A DNA stretch of 32,000 bases from Candidatus Saccharimonadota bacterium (GCA_030429145.1 JAUIDC010000001.1:600001-632000); one strand, 5' to 3'; shown: positions 4,402-28,056, counted from the stretch's first letter. Made by a program: numbers and translations. The notes: generated from the letters alone by a model not told the origin.

Positions 4402-6960
4402 ATGGAAAACGCACATCATACAAAACGTTCCCGTTCTAGTTGGATAGGGAGACAACCCAAAAATCTCCGAAAACATATTGTCTACTCGGTTCTTTACTCT
4501 CCACGATATGGCAGGACACTGTTGGCTATGGCTATTTTTTTGATTGTCATGAAAATGCTTCTCGTGCACGAAGCGTATGGGGCGGCACTTATAGGCGAAA
4601 CGGTAGTGAAAACGGTGATGAATTATGTGAGTATCCTTGCGAGCGATTTTATGATAGTGGGACTTATTTTTGTCGGAGCATTTCTCAATGCGGTGATTCG
4701 TAGAAAACGATTTAAGCGATACGTGAATATTACGGCATTGTTACTTATGCTTTTGTATGTGAGTGATATGTTCTCTATCTACTATTTTCAGAGTAGGTTC
4801 TACCTGATGGACCTACTACAGTTTTTTTCATTTAAAAATGGAGCAGGATATGTGCTCTATCCGTTAGCGTGGAGTATCCTTTTTATTACCATCTTATTTG
4901 TCTTCTTTTTGATGGTACAGAAATGGTTTCCAGTGATTCGCAGAAGAAACATGCACCTGAGGGCAGCGTTGGTGTTCTTTGCTATGTGTGTCCTGTTTAG
5001 TGGTGTTAACTTATTGAGCAATACCGATTTTCACTTCCGTAATAATGTGTTGGCAATCAACATCCAAGAGATTGTGGCTGTGGCATCAGCAAATGATAGA
5101 GATGCTTTGCCAGGAAGGGAGATCCAGTCATATGAGAGCTACTTTGTACCGATGGTTGGGCAGAAGAGACAAGGGGATGTGATTGTGCTTTTTGCTGAGT
5201 CTTTCTCCACAGTAGATTCTAAGAGGTCGGGAGGAATACACGACTATCTGACAGGTTTTGATACCATAGCGGCCGATGGTATCACCTATACCAATTTTAT
5301 TGCCAATGGTTGTACCTCAGAGACAGCGCATATTGCATTGTTGCAGGGAATCGAACCATGGGAGGTCCTACAGGGTTCGTCGGAAGACTATAAGAACTAT
5401 AAGGCGTATACAGAGTCCCTCCCTCAGTTTTTCAATGGATTGGGTTATGAGACCGTGTTTGTGAGTACGGCGCCGCTATCGTTTCTCAACCAAAGAGAGT
5501 TCTTGAAAGAAACGGGCTTTTCGAAGATAGTCGGTGAGGAGGCATTTGCCGGAACACAGCAATATGTCTTCAACGCGGCGCCGGATAAAGCCTTGTACGA
5601 CAAGGCGTTACAGATAGTGCGCAACAAAGATCAGCAGAAGCCGCTCTTCCTTTCTCTGCAGACGATCTCTTCGCATAAGCCTTATAACTCGCCAGATGGT
5701 ACAAGTGAGCGTGCAGCTTTTGCCTATTCAGATGCTCAGCTTCTCTCATTTTACGAGCAGCTGAAGGTAGACTGATTTTTCAAACATGGTACGCTCATAG
5801 TTGTGGGAGATCATAGAAAAATGGAACCGCTCGAACGTGAGGAGTTTCAAAAATTCGGAACGAGTGCTAACGGAAGAGCTGTGTTGGCCGTCGTGTGACC
5901 TCACATTGCGAAAGATGCATATCATGAAGATGTATTACAGCATATTGATCTCTTTTCGTCACTAAAATATCACTATGGTACTGGACAGATCTCACTCAAC
6001 AGTCGCTTCAATGATGTGTTTGGGAACTATCAGTGAAGAAAACAGGCAGTCCGCTACTGCCAGTATGTGGAAAGACAATATATAGCAACTGATAAGGATA
6101 ATGACTCTTGGACTATTAGCGCAACGACAGATAGATTAAATCTTGCCTATATCAATGCCTATAAAAAATTTCAGCAATACACAGGAAGTCTCAGCAAAGA
6201 CATGGCAGAGATAGAGAAACTGAAGCGTGAAAAAGGTCTCGTTATCATCTGACATCAGTGAGCGCCGATGATAGAAGCACCAAATAGTTACTCAAGTTTT
6301 ATGCGTGCGAAAGAGCAGTGAGCGGATGGTATCGAGTTCGATATCTCTCTCACAAAGGACAACTATAGCGTCGTACTACACGGTCCTGATATCGGTCGTA
6401 CGCAATGTAAACATAGCGAAGGCAAAAGAAATGTTGCTGAGTTTACACTCAAAGAGCTAAAAGACAACTGTAAGCTCTTCAATGGTGAGCCAGTGTTGAC
6501 ACTCACGGAGGCGCTACAAAAAACACAAGGTCAGTTCCAATACTATTTTGTCGATGTGAAGGTGTTTGACCAAACAAAAGTGGAGCAACAAATGAAAGAT
6601 GTTGTCGAGACAGTGAAAAAACTTCGTATGTCAGACGAGACAATTATATCCAGCTATGATTTTACGGGAAATAGAGCCTTGTGAGTATTTGGAAAAAGGA
6701 TGACACTCGCATGGGACACCTTTGATTCGAGCGAATATCTTGCTATGAATGATGCACCATATCAGTACTTTATGTTGCCATATATGTCGTATGAGCCTTA
6801 CATGGTTGAGTATGTCAGAGCTCACGGAAAGGAGCCTGTCGCTTATACTATCAACAACGTACAGGATGTGAAAAAACTCTATGATATGGGTGTCAAAATC
6901 ATCATGACAGACAACATACCTATGATCATCGAGTGGCTGAGAAGTGAACAAAATCAGTAA
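4402..6960 (+). CDS. membrane-anchored LtaS-like sulfatase (alkaline-phosphatase superfamily) fused to a C-terminal glycerophosphodiester phosphodiesterase (GDPD)-like domain
   Basis: One frame joins ORFs 4402-5775, 6067-6252, 6493-6684 and 6700-6960 through seven TGA codons (5773, 5896, 6034, 6250, 6259, 6319, 6682). N-terminus is multi-TM. Sulfatase-type motifs: LFAESFS, NGCTSETAHIALLQG, SSHKPY, GDHRKMEP. The GDPD-like tail starts around 6235: VII[G]HQ[G]APMIEAPNSYSSFMRAKEQ[G]ADGIEFDISLTKDNYSVVLHG...IIMTD. Stop TAA. Confidence 0.75.
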
Positions 6961-9555: not shown

Positions 9556-11031
9556 TTACTGAATTACGATGCCTTGAGCAAACTCATTCCATGAAGCTGC
9601 ATTTGATCTGATGATAAAGACTTTTTCTTCATCAGCAGTTTGTGTAACGATATAGTCAGGAAGAGCTGTTTGTATCTCTTCTACCGTTTGTCTTGTAACA
9701 CATTCGAACAGTTCAACACCTGGACTAACTGACTCATTTTCCATGTCAGCATATGCTTTTACCTGAATATTTACGTAGCAGTCAGTGCCTACGAGATCAA
9801 AGTCTTCAGTCACATTGACACCTTCGAATGCGATTTTCTGTGAAGGAAAGAAGACAGAATAGTTACCTCTGTTTGAGACAAAAAGGTAACCAGTCGATGT
9901 AGGGCCAGGTACTTGGCCTACGCTCTTTGGTGTTTCCGACTGTCCGTTTCCATTGCTTGTTCCTTCTCCGTTACTCCCATTGCTTCCGGTCTCAGAACCT
10001 CCGGCGGTTTCATTGCTGATAATATAGCTAGAGAGTGTGAATTTTTCCTGATGTTCACCAAATGTCATATCAACTGTACAAGTCACTTTTTTGTCGTCGG
10101 TATCTGTACCTTCGATGACAGTTGTTCGAGTATTTCCTTTTGCTGTCGTTGTCTGGTTCGTGATGTTAGATAGTCTTGATGTCGCATTGTAGCAGTAGTT
10201 TTTTGCTTGTGATGATATGCGAGATTGGATGTAGGCATTATCAATAGGATAAATGTATGATGAGATCTTATAGAAGAATGCATCTTTTGGTACATTTATC
10301 ATGTAGCCGATGTTTGCATTGCTTGCGAACCACTTACTTGATTCTGTCATCTTATAGAAGGTGATACCTTGTGTATTCGTGAACTGGTCACCAGCATTTG
10401 CAGACGCAATGATTTGCTCACAGTTTTTGAGAGGATCACTCTTTTGACATGTGAAGAAGCTGACAGTGATCATATCTCCGCTCGCGCTTGAAGCAGGATC
10501 AGCGATAGTGATAGTATCATCTGCAACAACAACACTTAACGGAGTAGGGTGAGAACTCACATCTACGAAAAGATTTCCGTTAGGGATATATGTCTTTGCT
10601 GTCGAAAGATCTGTTGTCAACTCTGCATTTTCATCAGATGTGATGAAAGAGACATCGATAACGTACATGTTATCATCATAGCTTTTTACTGTTCCTTTTA
10701 CAGAAACCGAACCATTGTAGTTACCGATAGCTGTTTTTGTGCTAATAAGACCAACTTCCTCGTTGCTTGCTAGCTTCAGCAAATATGAGTATTTCACTGG
10801 ATCTGGAGACTCTTCGATATCACCAGTCAGGATAACCTCTTTTCCTACATACATGTTTGTAAGCAGACTCTTACCGTTGATGTTGTTGCCGGTTCCTGTC
10901 ATATTGTTATTTTTCTCGATTTTTGATCCTGTTTGTTGCAAATATCGCAATCCGAGAGCGATAACTGCGAGTACTAAGATGACGGCTACCAAAGGTGCGC
11001 CTTTCTTTTTTCTTCTTTGTCTTATAGGCAT
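9556..11031 (-). CDS. hypothetical signal-anchored extracytoplasmic protein (491 aa)
   Basis: Uninterrupted ORF with ATG start and TAA stop. N-terminus MPIRQRRKKKGAPLVAVILVLAVIALGL has a basic patch followed by one TM/signal anchor. Internal low-complexity linker TAGGSETGSNGSNGEGTSNGNGQSETPKS. Scattered Cys residues. No motif I recognise. Confidence 0.7.
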   Translation of the reverse strand: MPIRQRRKKKGAPLVAVILVLAVIALGLRYLQQTGSKIEKNNNMTGTGNNINGKSLLTNMYVGKEVILTGDIEESPDPVKYSYLLKLASNEEVGLISTKTAIGNYNGSVSVKGTVKSYDDNMYVIDVSFITSDENAELTTDLSTAKTYIPNGNLFVDVSSHPTPLSVVVADDTITIADPASSASGDMITVSFFTCQKSDPLKNCEQIIASANAGDQFTNTQGITFYKMTESSKWFASNANIGYMINVPKDAFFYKISSYIYPIDNAYIQSRISSQAKNYCYNATSRLSNITNQTTTAKGNTRTTVIEGTDTDDKKVTCTVDMTFGEHQEKFTLSSYIISNETAGGSETGSNGSNGEGTSNGNGQSETPKSVGQVPGPTSTGYLFVSNRGNYSVFFPSQKIAFEGVNVTEDFDLVGTDCYVNIQVKAYADMENESVSPGVELFECVTRQTVEEIQTALPDYIVTQTADEEKVFIIRSNAASWNEFAQGIVIQ

Positions 11032-12872: not shown

Positions 12873-12878
12873 TAAGTG

Positions 12879-12905
12879 AAACAGTCTGTTACAGGCTGTT
12901 TTTTC
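12879..12905 (+). terminator. rho-independent terminator after trxB
   Basis: AAACAGTCTGT-ta-ACAGGCTGTTT hairpin (one G.U pair) followed by TTTTTC, 7 nt after the trxB stop. Confidence 0.6.
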
Positions 12906-13053
12906 TTAAAATAACATTTAGACATGTTTTGTAAAAATAGTCAATGCTTTTTGCTCATATTTTAGCCTCTTTTTCCCTTGGTTTTGGTAGTTTAAAGCGG
13001 TATATGTATACTTAAGAAAAGCCATTATTTACTACTCAGAAACAAAAAAATAG

Positions 13054-16000
13054 ATGACACTATGTACCGACAAGCTTGCACAGGTGCTCCAGACGACTGA
13101 TGGACTCAGAGAGGACGTCATTTCTGGTACAGTAACGATAGGTGAACTTGCGACAAAGGCGTGGGGCAACGATCTGAAAGCTCAGTGTTATAGAGAGCTC
13201 CCTTCATACGAGATCTATGATTTTGTCTCGTCGTTTACTGGTAGTGCTGTAGCGCCTGCAAGTGGGCAGACGACAGATATTCCACAGGCAGGCTGATTTT
13301 CTCTTGGTGCTGTGTCTGACTTTTTCAGTGGGATGATGAGTGGTCTTGATGGTAGTATGCAGGAGTATTTGAGTATAGCTGGGTGGATAGTAGCAGGATT
13401 AGTATGATTGGTTGTTCTCTTCAAACTTGTAAGATATATGCTCATTTTCCTCTATGATGTGCTTAACAACCGACGTATGGTCTATGTACGCATCGTACTG
13501 CCTCGTGGTGATGACAAACTCTCTCGTGAGCACGCGAGAGATGTCGCAAAAGACATGAAAGAAAAAATTTCACGTATGGGGCAGGTCTATGATGCACTGC
13601 ATAAACTTGGTGAGTCGTCATTTTATGAGTCGGCACTTCGTTGGGTGTTCCGTAAACCAAAGGTGTCGCTTATCTGGCACTATGAAAATGGACTTTTGTA
13701 CTGTATCATGGGTGTCTATCCAGAGTATAGAAAGATTGTAGAGTCGAGTGTAGCCGCTCAGTTTCCTGATGCGTCTATTGAACTTTTGGAGAAGAGACCA
13801 AGATTTTTCTCGAAAAAATACTATGATATTACTGTGATGGAAGAAGAGAAACATCAGGTGTTTCCTATTAAAACCTTTAAACAAATGCCAGACGATCCGA
13901 TTAATAATATTGTGGACACGATGGGGAAGATGTCTTCAGAAGATACGTTTACGATGGTTATGCCGATTAAGCCGGTAGGTGATCGTTTCAACAGAAAGGC
14001 ACAAAAGTGGGCAACTGGGCTCTATAGAAGAGATAAATTTTACATGAGAAAGGGGAAGACTTCATGGAAGTGGTTTTTCCCACCATATTGGATTATTGCT
14101 TTTATCGGTTTCCTTATGAGATCAGGTTCGACGAAAAAAGAGGAGAAGATGGATAGAGAGACAATCCAAGCAGGAGGTAAAGACCTTGTTCGTATGACGA
14201 AAGCCGAAGAAGAGGCTCTCAATGTTATGGGTGAAGAGGCTGGTAAACATGCTTTTGATACGGGTATTATCCTCATTTCCTCATCAGACAGCAAGGAACG
14301 TACATCGCAAAATATCGATAATATGATATCAATCTTCACGATCTATCGTGATGAGTTCAACAATGAGCTTGATAACAATGAGTTCCTTTCCGATGCTCTC
14401 GGGTTCTTCTTCAAGCCGCTGTGGAGATTCGCAGCGAGATTTTCACTGCCACACTTCTTCTTTAAGAAGAGTATCATGACACCAAATGCGCTGACATCGC
14501 TCTTCCATTTGCCAGATGGTATGTACAATCATGCACCTATTATCAAATGGCTTGACTATAAGATGCTTGCACCACCTGACAATCTACCGCATCTCCAAGA
14601 GCCGACAGATTATATTATCACTGGAAAGGTTGCAGAAGACTATCTTGATGGTCAGGTAAGTAGGATTCTCGAAAAGGCGTCACACTGGGCAGTCGGTGAG
14701 AAAGAAGAAACAAAGACAGAGTATCTACCATATACACAGTGATACAAGCCGCAGGCTTGAGAAAAGGTGATAGAAAAAGATGGAAAGAGATATATAGAAA
14801 AGACTACAACTGAGAAAAAGAAAGGTCTCCGTGTGTTTAAGGATGGTGTATTATTGGGTATTAATATTTATCGTAATACCTATACGCCTATCTATATGAT
14901 GAAGAAAGATAGAACAAGACATCACTATATTATCGGTAAGTCTGGTACAGGTAAGTCGGTATATATTGAGATGATGGCGCGTCAGGATATCTGGGCGGGC
15001 AATGGTTGTTGCGTGATTGATCCGCATGGTGACTTAGTAGAAAGTATTTTGAAGTACATCCCGAAGGAAAGAGCGAAGGATGTCGTCTACTTTGATGCTG
15101 GAAATGAGGAGCGTCCTATGGGACTCAATCTTTATGAGATTAGTTCGACTGATGAGTCAGATCGTGTGGTGAATGATGCGACAGAGATGTTCTTGAAGAT
15201 GTTCGGTCCAGAGATCTTTGGTCCACGTATTCAGGAGTACTTTAAGTATGGTTCATTGACGCTCCTTGAAGACCTGGAAGATCCAGCGACGTTGATTGAT
15301 GTGCCAAGACTATTTACTGATGAGGTATTTAGAGAGTATAAGGTAAAGAAAGTGAAAAACCCGGTAGTAAAAAACTTCTGGGAAAGAACATATAACAATA
15401 TCGGCGAACGTGAAAAGCAGGAGATTATTCCATACTTTACTTCGAAGTTCGTATCGTTTATTACGAACTCACTTATCCGTAATATTATCGGTCAGACGAA
15501 ATCTGCATTTGATTTCAGAGAGATAATGGACAATGGTAAGATTCTTCTTGTGAACTTATCGAAGGGTAAGATTGGTGAGCTCAATGCTCAGCTTCTTGGT
15601 ATGGTGCTTGTGTCGAATATTTACAATGCTGCTATGTCTCGTCAGGATATCGATGAGAAGGATCGTAAGGACTTCTATCTGTATGTGGATGAGTTCCAGA
15701 ACTTTGTAACCAATACGTTTGCAGATATTCTTTCCGAAGCTCGTAAATATAAGCTGTCACTTATCATGGCGCATCAGTATATCGCACAGCTTGATGGTGG
15801 AGCAAGTAATAACATTGGTGAAACTGCCGGTGGAAAGAAATCGGTGAAAGATGCTGTCTTTGGTAATGTGGGTACGATGCAATCATTTAAGATCGGTGCA
15901 CAGGATGCAGAGTTCTTGGAGAAGGAGTATGCACCGGTACTGAGTGCGCAGGATATCGTATGAATAGCGAACTATAAAGCATATATTAAGCTGAACATCA

Positions 16001-16305
16001 AAAATACTACATCACGTGTCTTTAGTATGAACTCGATCTGGACAGAGGATTATAAAAATAAGAAAGCTGCAGAGATCCTTATGGAATATAGTGCAAAGAA
16101 ATACGGACGTAAGAGAGAGTTTGTCGAGGCTGAAATCCAGGCAAGACTTGGTATCCTTGCGGACGAGCGTCATGCAGAAGATCTCAAGAAAATGTTGCCA
16201 GCTGAGGAGATTCATCCAAAGACGCCAATTGAAAATGTTCCTGAGGAGGTACATGAGCAGCAACAGGCGGAGGCTAAAGCGAAAGCTCAACAATCGGAGG
16301 AGTAA
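13054..16305 (+). CDS. membrane-anchored VirD4/TraD-like (type IV coupling protein family) P-loop ATPase with a large uncharacterised N-terminal domain, 1083 codons
   Basis: ORFs 13054-13296, 13408-14742, 14767-15963 and 16027-16305 are in one frame, joined by TGA at 13294, 13405, 14740, 14758 and 15961. TM segment IAGWIVAGLV[G]LVVLFKLV. Walker A HHYIIGKSGTGKS. DPHGDL. RPMGLNLYE. Walker B FYLYVDEFQNF. SEARKYKLSLIMAHQYIAQL. FGNVGTMQSFKIGAQDAEFL. Stop TAA at 16303-16305. Confidence 0.8.
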
Positions 16306-16327
16306 TGCTATAAACTGGACTATTAAG

Positions 16328-16359
16328 AGGAGGAGACAATATGATCTCCTCTTTTTTTA
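16328..16359 (+). terminator. rho-independent terminator after the VirD4-like gene
   Basis: AGGAGGAGA-caatatga-TCTCCTCT stem followed by a T8 run. The ATG at 16341 that the ORF track uses as a start lies inside the loop. Confidence 0.75.
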
Positions 16360-17366: not shown

Positions 17367-17430
17367 AATCAGTTGCATTTTACCTGCTTTTTTCTATCAT
17401 CGCATCTACGTGTAACAAATCAAAGATCGT

Positions 17431-17503
17431 GGGACTGTAGCTCAGTTGGTAGAGCAAGAGCCTCTTAAGCTCCTGGTCCAGGGTTCGAATCCCTGCAGTC
17501 CCA
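17431..17503 (+). tRNA. tRNA-Lys(CUU): tRNA-Lys, anticodon CUU
   Basis: Hand-folded cloverleaf. Acceptor GGGACTG/CAGTCCC. D arm GCTC-AGTTGGTA-GAGC. Anticodon arm AGAGC-CTCTTAA-GCTCC (U33, CTT, A37). Variable loop TGGTC. T arm CAGGG-TTCGAAT-CCCTG. Discriminator A. CCA not encoded. Confidence 0.9.
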
Positions 17504-17565
17504 AATCAAAATAGCTGTCAAAGGCTGTTTTTTGTTTTATATGTCTAGATAATGACAAACAACCT

Positions 17566-17617: not shown

Positions 17618-17692
17618 AGGACCATAGCTCAGTGGTAGAGCGGGAGTCTCCAAAGCTCCGCGTCGGGAGTTCGATCCTCTCTGGTCCTGCCA
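17618..17692 (+). tRNA. tRNA-Trp(CCA): tRNA-Trp, anticodon CCA (3' CCA encoded)
   Basis: Acceptor AGGACCA/TGGTCCT. D arm GCTC-AGTGGTA-GAGC. Anticodon arm GGAGT-CTCCAAA-GCTCC (U33, CCA, A37). Variable loop GCGTC. T arm GGGAG-TTCGATC-CTCTC. Discriminator G, then CCA. Confidence 0.9.
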
Positions 17693-26642: not shown

Positions 26643-27245
26643 ATGACATACAATCCATACGACCACTATTTCAAACAGGCAAAGAAGTCCGGCTACAAGG
26701 CGAGGAGTGCTTTCAAGTTAGAAGAAATAGACAAGAAATATAAGATTTTTGATAAGAATGTGAAAACAGTCATGGATATTGGGTGTTCGCCAGGTTCCTG
26801 GCTCCAATATGCAAGTGATGCTATGAAGAAAAATAGGATTAAGAATCCGTTAGTAGTTGGTTTTGATATCAAGCCTGCTACAGTTGAGATTCCTGATGTG
26901 CATCGATATGTGCAAGATATCCAAGATACAGAAGCTGTCGAGAAGATTATGGCAGGACATGGAGTAGAAAAATGTGATGCTATCATCTCTGACATGGCGC
27001 CAAACACGATCGGATTTAAGGATATTGATGCGATCAGAAGCATTGAGCTACTTCGTACTACTTTGCCACTATATGAAAAATTTCTTAAAGAGGGAGGCAA
27101 AGCTGTCATCAAAATCTTCATGTGACCTGGCTTTGAAGAGTTCCTTTCTGAGTTCAGAAAGCTCGTTGGTAGCAAAAATGTCAAAACCTTTAAGCCCCAG
27201 GCAACGAGAAAAGAGAGCAAAGAGACTTACATAGTGAAGTTTTAG
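26643..27245 (+). CDS. rlmE: 23S rRNA (uridine-2'-O)-methyltransferase RlmE/FtsJ
   Basis: MTYNPYDHYFKQAKKSGYKARSAFKLEEIDKKYKIF. SAM motif VMDIGCSPGSWLQY. ISDMAPN. VIKIFM[TGA]PGFEEF (conserved Gly of F.G.G). TGA at 27123-27125. True stop TAG at 27243-27245. Upstream alternative start at 26595. Confidence 0.85.
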
Positions 27246-27976
27246 TCTATATCAGGAAGAGCAAATTGGTCGTATACTTGCTTGTCGGTCATGTCCCAGG
27301 CTTTTTCTACATCTTCAGGAAAGAACTTTACTGCATTTGGTTGAAAATATTGCCATTGTAGAAAACTAAATTTTTGTCTTAGACGAGCAGTGATAATGAC
27401 AATGACGGCATTGGGTCTGTTGGTTAATTTATTTTCAGTAACGTGGATAGAGCAGAACTTTCCAGCATCAGGATGACCAAATGGTCAAGGAAACTCAATT
27501 TTTTCATAATAACCACCGTTTCCGTCTTCATCCCATATATCAACATTGTTTGCCTCATTAATTTTGTCTCAGTATTCTGGGGTAACATCATATATGTATT
27601 CGGGATGCTGTAGGAAAAGAATCCTGTCAATAGGCTGTCATTCACCCTTGTCAGCACTGATCTTAGCATTCTTAATAAAAGAGAGCATCTCTCTTTTTGC
27701 ATGCCTTTGTTGGAGCTCTCCTCCTGTATACAATACAGTGAGTATATCGAGATAGTCTGCTAATTCTTCCATGTTATTGGGGTCGAAAGAGCGATATGGT
27801 TTCTCATATTCTCATTTCCATACCATGCTTAACTCTTTCAAAACGCTCTTTATCTCTTCCTTTTGTTCAGGCGAGAAACGCTCAAAGTTCAGTAAGAGCT
27901 GAGAGACTGTGTTTGCACTATGACCCTCATGGAAATCCAACTTTCTCTCTTTGTTGGTTGATCTAGGTGTGTTCAT
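27242..27976 (-). CDS. hypothetical soluble protein (about 244 aa from ATG 27976, about 267 aa if TTG 28045)
   Basis: ORF 27812-28045 continues in frame through TGA at 27812, 27638, 27569 and 27485 to TAA at 27242-27244. ...EQKEEIKSVLKELSMVWK[G]EYEKPYRSFDPNNMEELADYLDILTVLYTGGELQQRHAKREML...WDEDGNGGYYEKIEFP[G]PFGHPDAGKF...NAVIVIITARLRQKF. No TM segment and no motif I recognise. The tracked ORF 27424-27702 is in a different frame and looks spurious. Confidence 0.55.
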
Positions 27977-28056
27977 TCTTGTGGGTGATGTATAAATATC
28001 AAAGATAGTACTTTTATTTAGAGATAAGTCAATACTCTCTTGCAAATGTCTTACGC

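Follow-up and report, generated by a model that had tools for sequence, protein, structure and literature searches.

Nucleotides 13054-16305 of the 32,000-nucleotide stretch analysed here (Candidatus Saccharimonadota bacterium, GCA_030429145.1, JAUIDC010000001.1:600001-632000; hereafter the window) hold a single gene for a predicted membrane-anchored ATPase of the type IV coupling protein (T4CP) class, lying between trxB and a gene for a GT2 glycosyltransferase. An original prediction, drawn from the nucleotide sequence alone, had described it as a VirD4/TraD-like motor standing by itself, with a large N-terminal domain that matched nothing recognisable. We find a C-terminal ATPase related to TrwB of R388, preceded by the Pfam domain DUF8128, whose fold is probably like that of the VirB4 N-terminal domain. 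Judged by its sequence, the gene is most likely the Absconditabacteria-type orthologue of a chromosomally fixed T4CP that occurs throughout the Candidate Phyla Radiation (CPR).

One intact gene with UGA read as glycine

The frame of 1083 codons is interrupted by TGA alone, at codons 81, 118, 563, 569 and 970 (nucleotides 13294, 13405, 14740, 14758 and 15961). Translation table 11 breaks the gene into open reading frames (ORFs) 13054-13296, 13408-14742, 14767-15963 and 16027-16305 with short linkers between them; over the window as a whole, long ORFs require TGA to be sense. The tRNA-Trp of the window carries the anticodon CCA, which together with the sense TGA codons fits code 25 (TGA = Gly) and not code 4. 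No UGA-reading tRNA was found within the 32 kb. More than 120 full-length database homologues of 900-1280 aa align over 83-100% of the window protein at 52-88% identity, and invariant alignment columns continue across all five TGA codons. TGA970, within the conserved ATPase core, is aligned to G or W in recoded relatives and to N in standard-code relatives, the W being the product of databases that translate TGA as Trp. TGA563 and TGA569 fall in gapped columns of a poorly conserved interdomain linker. Standard-code CPR orthologues encode both halves in a single uninterrupted ORF of 800-865 aa.

The window therefore carries one intact gene for one protein, with UGA read as glycine, as originally proposed: the frame, the homologues and the standard-code fusions agree on a single table-25 gene that table 11 shows as four ORFs. 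A translation stop between 14740 and 14767, which would have yielded two proteins, is rejected because homologues are full-length, conservation crosses the TGA codons and standard-code ORFs are fused. More generally, a pseudogene, or two or more proteins each ending at a TGA, is barely conceivable: five in-frame TGA codons, two of them in the variable linker, are what such a reading has in its favour, but TGA970 sits inside the invariant ATPase core. We noted that database translations of orthologues from Absconditabacteria and Gracilibacteria in many cases have W where the alignment expects G, apparently from the use of code 4 in place of code 25.

The C-terminal half is a coupling-protein-type ATPase

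All five coupling-protein motifs quoted in the original prediction are present in the translation. Pfam models TrwB_AAD_bind (30.7 bits, cut-off 20.5) and TraG-D_C (25.5 bits, cut-off 22) both pass on the window protein, and T4SS-DNA_transf additionally passes on orthologues. No named equivalog cut-off was reached in NCBIfam, where the nearest entries were SXT_TraD (41 bits, cut-off 366) and conju_CD1115 (35 bits, cut-off 250); others, including CedD and TrbC, gave weak P-loop-only or chance matches far under their cut-offs. Orthologues are named at NCBI 'type IV secretory system conjugative DNA transfer family protein' or 'TraM recognition domain-containing protein'.

TrwB was the sole match in a sequence search of the PDB, whether the query was the single protein or a 69-sequence profile. 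By hhalign, a profile of 155 C-domains matched TrwB with probability 96.7 over 274 columns, and the same profile gave 82 over 91 columns for the VirB4 protein TrsE, 66 for TrsK and 17 for TrwK. For structural comparison we used models of a window fragment, residues 119-562, and of the full-length orthologue P0004, which is 67% identical. The AlphaFold model of P0004 (predicted local distance difference test score, pLDDT, 76.7) matched TrwB-deltaN70 in Foldseek with E ~1e-12 and a template modelling (TM) score of 0.60-0.64 over 415-445 columns, nearly the whole chain. It also matched Cag-beta and, more weakly and ranked below TrwB, HerA. Between the core strands, residues 690-818 of this model form eight consecutive helices (window numbering is nine higher), in the place of the all-alpha domain of TrwB.

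The Pfam cut-offs, together with TrwB as the better structural match, speak against an FtsK/HerA assignment. FtsK_SpoIIIE gave no Pfam match on the window protein, in which we saw no FtsK-specific features; DUF87, the HerA central domain, reached 22.6 bits, under its cut-off of 23.2, and HerA_C only E 0.063. PADLOC returned weak HerA and mad8 P-loop matches only. VirB4 models (AAA_10, CagE_TrbE_VirB, TraC_F_IV and the NCBIfam VirB4 families) gave no match on the window protein at E <= 1, whereas genuine VirB4 proteins score up to 7.7e-116 on AAA_10. By sequence profile and predicted fold, then, and in line with its first description as VirD4/TraD-like, the C-terminal half is a T4CP ATPase of the VirD4/TrwB type. 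Both of its Walker motifs are intact, and an all-alpha insert is predicted.

The N-terminal half combines a membrane helix with DUF8128

A single N-terminal transmembrane segment, as originally noted, is borne out by a hydrophobic helix at about residues 104-134. Its C-terminal flank has a net positive charge, which would put most of the protein in the cytoplasm; residues 1-103 are probably extracytoplasmic. This leading segment is present in the long Absconditabacteria-type forms and missing from the CPR forms of 800-865 aa, as seen in the alignment, the P0004 model and the sequence of the CPR orthologue P0184.

Residues 137-560, within the region previously thought to match nothing, correspond to DUF8128 (PF26449), a precomputed Pfam assignment carried by orthologues at 64-87% identity rather than a scan of the window protein itself. 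P0169 and P0184, high-scoring members of our N-domain profile that we looked up, both carry it as well. A literature search on DUF8128 returned no papers.

The AlphaFold2 model of residues 119-562 (pLDDT 86, predicted template modelling score 0.78) gave 14 top Foldseek matches in the PDB, all of them TrwK/VirB4 chains of R388, with E values of 5e-5 to 2e-3 and probabilities of ~1.0; the next match on that list had a probability of only 0.18. Because VirB4 entries comprising only the C-domain, and TrwB, are missing from these matches, the likeness is to the VirB4 N-terminal domain. Against BFVD the same model matched gp156 of phage G (E 3.8e-15) and gp155 of the same phage (E 4.8e-7). TrwK was also the top match of the full-length P0004 model, collinear over ~1038 columns. 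The models thus point to a fold for DUF8128 that is probably VirB4-N-domain-like, a likeness at the level of fold that does not establish homology. Coordinates of the gene, its domains and its flanks are collected in Table 1.

Table 1. Features of the coupling-protein gene and its surroundings (window coordinates; residues refer to the encoded protein)
Feature	Position	Strand	Remarks
Hairpin and U run 3' of trxB	12878..12902	+	dG -13.2 kcal/mol, z -3.9
AT-rich intergenic region	12903..13053	+	GC 0.27 at 12900-13049
Complete coding sequence	13054..16305	+	1083 codons and TAA at 16303; five sense TGA (Gly)
N-terminal segment, residues 1-103	13054..13362	+	Helical, near-invariant C4 and C45, then a variable disordered stretch
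Single transmembrane helix, ~residues 104-134	13363..13455	+	Kyte-Doolittle maximum 2.40; long helix in the P0004 model
DUF8128 domain, residues 137-560	13462..14733	+	Predicted alpha/beta fold
Variable linker (TGA563, TGA569), then beta-rich segment into the ATPase	14734..14883	+	P0004 strands 538-607
T4CP-type nucleotide-binding domain, residues 611-1035	14884..16158	+	Pfam, PDB, Foldseek, hhalign
Walker A GKSGTGKS, residues 628-635	14935..14958	+	K634 and S635 invariant in 70 sequences
Predicted all-alpha insertion, ~residues 699-827	15148..15534	+	P0004 model; counterpart of the TrwB all-alpha domain
Walker B YLYVDE, residues 875-880	15676..15693	+	D879, E880, F881, Q882 and N883 invariant
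Disordered acidic C-terminal tail, residues 1036-1083	16159..16302	+	Model pLDDT <50; unconserved in the alignment
Hairpin and U run 3' of the stop codon	16325..16358	+	Hairpin 16325-16356, dG -14.8, z -4.1
tRNA-Lys(CTT)	17430..17504	+	1.1 kb 3' of the T4CP gene (both tRNAs)
tRNA-Trp(CCA)	17618..17692	+	

Distribution across the CPR

The original prediction held proteins with such an N-terminal extension and ATPase to be widespread in CPR genomes, and this was accurate. A profile of the N-domain (residues 137-562) found 1125 representative clusters, many of them proteins of 800-865 aa in which a T4CP ATPase comes after the N-domain, itself at about residues 40-400. A scan of one genome per species yielded at least 598 genomic loci, the best 80 all near-full-length, and at least 3790 proteins matched at E <= 1e-20. 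Record titles among the best 80 name Peribacteria/Peregrinibacteria, Berkel-, Moran-, Uhr-, Magasanik-, Doudna-, Staskawicz-, Portnoy-, Buchanan-, Komeili- and Woesebacteria, Gracilibacteria, Parcubacteria and others. Compared with the closest CPR loci among the best 80 listed, the window protein shows 57-65% identity in its ATPase half; as sequence conservation goes, this is the level of a core gene. We note that some metagenome-assembled genomes titled 'uncultured Gammaproteobacteria', 'Bdellovibrionales' or 'Candidatus Saccharibacteria' (L006, L047 and others) place the gene on contigs encoding typical CPR proteins, and that the closest named relatives of the 'Saccharibacteria'-titled L047 are Berkelbacteria; taxon labels of this sort are unreliable.

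Gene neighbourhoods were compared in 84 related loci, namely the complete SR1 genome RAAC1_SR1_1, a 65%-identical relative, two standard-code CPR contigs and 80 genome loci. The 65%-identical relative keeps trxB upstream and the GT2 gene downstream, and ORF clustering showed DnaX, CysS and CorA as recurrent neighbours in CPR loci. Small conserved ORFs stand at position -1 in 37 loci (141-174 aa, in two sequence clusters; for example L003 9520-9999) and at +1 in 24 loci (~218 aa; for example L003 12863-13525). They belong to many standard-code CPR lineages and are missing from this window. They may encode partner proteins; neither Pfam domains nor any likeness to Replic_Relax, VirB3 or the small membrane proteins of SPP1, SPO1 and phage G was detected in them. 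We discarded the idea that one of these flanking ORFs has been fused onto the Absconditabacteria form as its N-terminal 136 residues, since the two show no similarity.

Three loci encode a second DUF8128-T4CP paralogue downstream, at a distance of at most ~3 kb (L042 15612-18539; L045 3587-6163, adjacent; L047 13972-17193). It is 860-1070 aa long, shares ~40% identity in the ATPase half and has a long C-terminal extension. Such a paralogue would fit the roughly two T4CP matches per CPR genome in a published survey (PMC12102498).

Relatives in Bacillus phages and in plasmids

Occurrence in the CPR stands, but the family is not specific to it: relatives occur in Bacillus phages and in Gram-positive and archaeal plasmids. 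The PHROGs family phrog_5156 matched P0184 at 1.6e-93, over profile positions 51-818 of 824, and P0004 at 2.6e-64 in two stretches, the better being the C-terminal half. By tblastn, 88 phage records matched, nearly all of Bacillus phages; among them are SPO1 gp27.4, SPP1 gene 32 (L087 3413-5923), phage G gp156, CP-51 and JL. The phage proteins of phrog_5156 (SPP1 gp32, SPO1 gp27.4, phage G gp156) share both domains with the CPR protein, with hhalign probabilities of 85-99 for the N-domain and 97-99.9 for the C-domain, but are only ~21-23% identical to it. SPP1 gp32 is a non-essential early protein with no predicted transmembrane segment, for which a translocon built together with small membrane proteins has been proposed (PMC6316719).

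Two phages offer informative neighbours. In SPO1 the homologue gp27.4 is paired with gp27.3, a Replic_Relax protein (L089 4536-8073). In phage G, gp155 lies directly upstream of the homologue gp156 (L088 4243-8385) and is a genuine VirB4, matching TrsE by phmmer at 5.9e-28 as well as AAA_10 and P-loop_TraG. Lytic Bacillus phages thus carry a conjugation-like mini-module, made up of the homologue with Replic_Relax in SPO1 or with VirB4 in phage G.

Matches were also found in 265 plasmid records from Bacillus, Streptomyces, Staphylococcus, Clostridium, haloarchaea and Sulfolobus. On a 27.5-kb plasmid of B. subtilis (NZ_CP154917) the homologue is followed by Replic_Relax, genes for conjugal transfer and a VirB4 of the AAA_10 family; a plasmid of Embleya (NZ_CP108778) has the order PrgI/VirB3, VirB4, homologue, Replic_Relax and NlpC/P60. 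These Bacillus and Embleya T4CPs have the same two-domain architecture as the CPR protein (hhalign 97.6-98.8 for the N-domain, 99.9-100 for the C-domain) and sit inside conjugation clusters with Replic_Relax, VirB4, PrgI/VirB3 and a cell-wall hydrolase, whereas the CPR gene is without such neighbours. On the evidence of gene content and profiles, the family outside the CPR is the coupling-protein-type ATPase of a monoderm conjugation module, and its CPR descendant is chromosomal and no longer has conjugation neighbours.

Flanks and neighbouring genes in the window

An upstream region of the gene's own, AT-rich as originally described, is supported by its low GC content and by the hairpin after trxB, a probable terminator that would separate the T4CP gene from trxB. 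The one sigma-70-like site in this region, at 12984-13012 (TTGGTA-17-TATACT), is weak, matching at 9 of 12 positions, which is no better than chance. The 'strong terminator' claimed downstream fared less well. The hairpin itself is there, but its role as a terminator, although plausible, is ambiguous because the same bases form the strong ribosome-binding site and start of the GT2 gene (Shine-Dalgarno GGAGGAG, 6 nt, ATG16341 and the first codons ATG ATC TCC TCT). A consensus scan did not list the 16325-16356 hairpin, and the structure could also occlude the GT2 ribosome-binding site.

Pfam identifies genes in the window for a CCA-adding enzyme, a sulfatase-GDPD membrane protein, HIT, an S41 protease, LspA, TrxB, GT2, a flavodoxin-like reductase, DoxX, a polysaccharide flippase, NUDIX and RlmE, in addition to the two tRNAs. 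ProRS, FtsH and Der were named by reading translations, with agreeing Pfam matches on the corresponding genes of a related contig (L092); IF-2 and L9, named by reading translations alone, are presumably also encoded. Every identified neighbour is a housekeeping gene. Pfam scans of the window proteins revealed no relaxase, VirB4, VirB6, pilin or integrase, which upholds the earlier statement that no conjugation gene lies in the window, and the ~9 kb that L092 adds on the right side are likewise free of secretion genes.

Among the remaining genes, that at 4402-6960 (+) encodes an 852-aa membrane protein in which a sulfatase (LTA-synthase-like) is fused to GDPD; the same fusion lies ~10 kb upstream of the T4CP orthologue in RAAC1_SR1_1 (L001 1-616), which hints at loose long-range synteny. 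The 267-aa protein of 27242-28045 (-) has no Pfam match. A 491-aa protein at 9556-11031 (-), encoded without TGA, has an N-terminal hydrophobic helix, a Ser/Gly/Asn-rich stretch and only a sub-threshold SusF/SusE match.

Comparison with known systems

TrwB of R388 (1E9R, 1E9S, 1GKI, 1GL6) is the best match for residues ~600-1035 and shares with the window protein the P-loop domain, the all-alpha insert and a membrane-anchored N-terminus. Identity is ~17%, and the two differ ahead of the ATPase: TrwB has a two-helix membrane domain directly before it and no DUF8128, whereas the window protein has one helix and an extra domain of 420 residues. TrwB is also encoded beside the relaxase TrwC and works in conjugation, whereas the window gene has no relaxase neighbour. 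TrwK, the VirB4 of R388 (7O41-7O43, 8RTB, 8RTD), has the same order of N-domain and ATPase and a matching predicted N-domain fold. It shows no sequence similarity in the N-domain, and the ATPase of the window protein is closer to TrwB. Unlike the window protein, R388 VirB4 presumably has no transmembrane helix of its own.

Within the CPR, Quinonero-Coronel et al. (2025) counted 5,713 VirD4-type T4CP homologues in 2,918 of 3,035 genomes (~96%), of which 148 were near virB4, with almost no relaxases; VirB4 was found in 2,417 genomes (PMC12102498). The usual layout in their Table S3 has one or two t4cp1 genes separated by hundreds of genes from a virB4-trsD-virB3-virB2 cluster, with virb4 and t4cp1 listed separately. 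The four assemblies of the Absconditabacteria class (JAEDAM01) shown in Table S1 are flagged VirB4-positive, and VirB3 and TrsD homologues unlinked to virB4 are reported from the class Gracilibacteria (PMC12102498). The CPR t4cp1 genes are, like the window gene, chromosomal, distant from virB4 and without a relaxase. DUF8128, the VirB4-like predicted fold and the phage and plasmid relatives are not described in the passages of the survey used here.

The window gene is accordingly a further orthologue of an already catalogued family (Pfam DUF8128; CPR T4CP homologues). That CPR coupling proteins are 'orphans' is itself already known (PMC12102498, PMC10633639). The orphan status originally assigned to the gene is shown locally and may not extend to the genome: the survey flags Absconditabacteria-class assemblies as VirB4-positive and shows a dispersed type IV secretion system (T4SS) as the usual CPR layout. 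An 'orphan' in this sense is separated from the T4SS genes but may well belong to a cell that has a T4SS. The suggestion of a non-conjugative role is likewise already published, as a possible exaptation of CPR T4CPs at large, in PMC12102498.

Possible roles of the detached coupling protein

The reading we favour, and hold with about equal belief and doubt, is that the protein would be a membrane-anchored hexameric motor of the T4CP type serving the dispersed, relaxase-less T4SS of CPR bacteria and docking through its VirB4-like N-domain. It would assemble as TrwB does and act as the substrate-feeding ATPase of a system whose virB4-trsD-virB3-virB2 genes may lie elsewhere in the genome. The VirB4-N-domain-like predicted fold of DUF8128 makes VirB4-like docking probable: the protein could settle on the inner-membrane platform as VirB4 does, through VirB3/VirB8-type partners or by pairing with the N-domain of VirB4/TrsD, and DUF8128 would then replace the usual two-helix membrane domain of a T4CP. 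As no relaxase partner is present, the cargo moved at the contact with the host cell would more likely be protein, or DNA handled without a relaxase.

Several observations weigh against this proposal. No physical or genetic tie links the CPR protein to a T4SS. Across the 84 loci, apart from the family itself, nothing resembling VirB4, TrsD, TrsK or Replic_Relax turned up within 10 kb of the gene. The protein's very strong conservation and its housekeeping neighbours (DnaX, CysS, CorA) would also suit a core cellular role. The structural argument has its own soft points: TM-scores of the 119-562 model to TrwK are modest, at 0.32-0.36, and hhalign comparison of the family N-domain profile with TrsD, TrsE, TrwK, TrwM and a five-member VirB4 N-domain profile gave probabilities below 1 throughout. 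In Southlakia, where the T4SS cluster is essential, neither a coupling protein nor a relaxase is recognisable in that cluster (Wang et al. 2023; PMC10633639), and the survey reports that strain ML1 has a non-essential t4cp, which may or may not belong to the DUF8128 family, although the T4SS cluster was essential (PMC12102498).

The same observations lend some credit to an alternative that we rate as a serious but clearly less probable contender, namely that the protein is an exapted translocase acting autonomously, alone or with small partners, in a core CPR process such as DNA uptake or export at host contact or FtsK-like DNA handling at division. Its separation from T4SS genes at every one of the 84 loci, its housekeeping neighbourhoods and an ATPase as conserved as that of a core gene would all be expected of such a protein, as would the non-essentiality reported for one CPR t4cp. 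The recurrent small ORFs at -1 and +1 in other CPR lineages could supply the partners, SPP1 gp32 is a precedent for a relative without a full T4SS, and exaptation of CPR T4CPs has already been discussed in PMC12102498. But there is no direct evidence for a function of this kind, the small ORFs are missing from the window and have no recognisable domains, and FtsK_SpoIIIE and FtsK-specific features were not found. The plasmid homologues examined outside the CPR, moreover, sit in conjugation clusters with VirB4. A related scenario, which strikes us as doubtful, would make the family an intermediate between VirB4 and VirD4 that keeps an ancestral VirB4 N-domain, works in the CPR as a core, T4SS-independent motor carrying host-derived DNA or protein through the single membrane where epibiont and host meet, and had relatives borrowed by Bacillus phages.

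It is improbable that the gene is instead the VirB4 of Absconditabacteria. The two-domain layout with a VirB4-like predicted N-domain, TrwK as the best match of the full-length P0004 model, and the Gracilibacteria-class VirB3 and TrsD homologues that the survey reports as unlinked to virB4 would suit that identity. The failure of every VirB4 model at E <= 1 would not, and neither would a C-domain that has an all-alpha insert and that both profile and fold place nearer to TrwB than to VirB4. On the Bacillus plasmid, the Embleya plasmid and phage G, besides, the family is a second ATPase beside a genuine VirB4, and CPR genomes have virb4 and t4cp1 listed separately (PMC12102498).

Least credible of these is that an integrated conjugative element or a prophage left the gene behind as mobile cargo, an origin that the plasmid and phage homologues might suggest but that is contradicted by the gene's unremarkable base composition within the window, by the absence there of flanking integrase genes or repeats and of detectable element borders near the tRNA genes 1.1 kb downstream, and by a strongly conserved protein with orthologues across the CPR and partial trxB/GT2 synteny in the 65%-identical relative.

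Implications for the CPR secretion system

The window gene itself adds merely one more orthologue, and the question of what a retained, detached CPR T4CP does is not newly raised by it. What is added here is the probable VirB4-like fold of the extra domain, a set of relatives in phages and plasmids, several of which have telling neighbours (VirB4, Replic_Relax), and a consistent separation from all T4SS genes in the CPR loci examined.

CPR bacteria rely on host cells. In a T4SS the choice of cargo normally falls to the coupling protein, so a detached T4CP highly conserved across the CPR would be an obvious handle for finding the substrate. The CPR T4SS is the only T4SS shown to be essential for the growth of its own carrier (Southlakia; PMC10633639). 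It is as a handle on that cargo that the DUF8128-T4CP family would be worth experiments.

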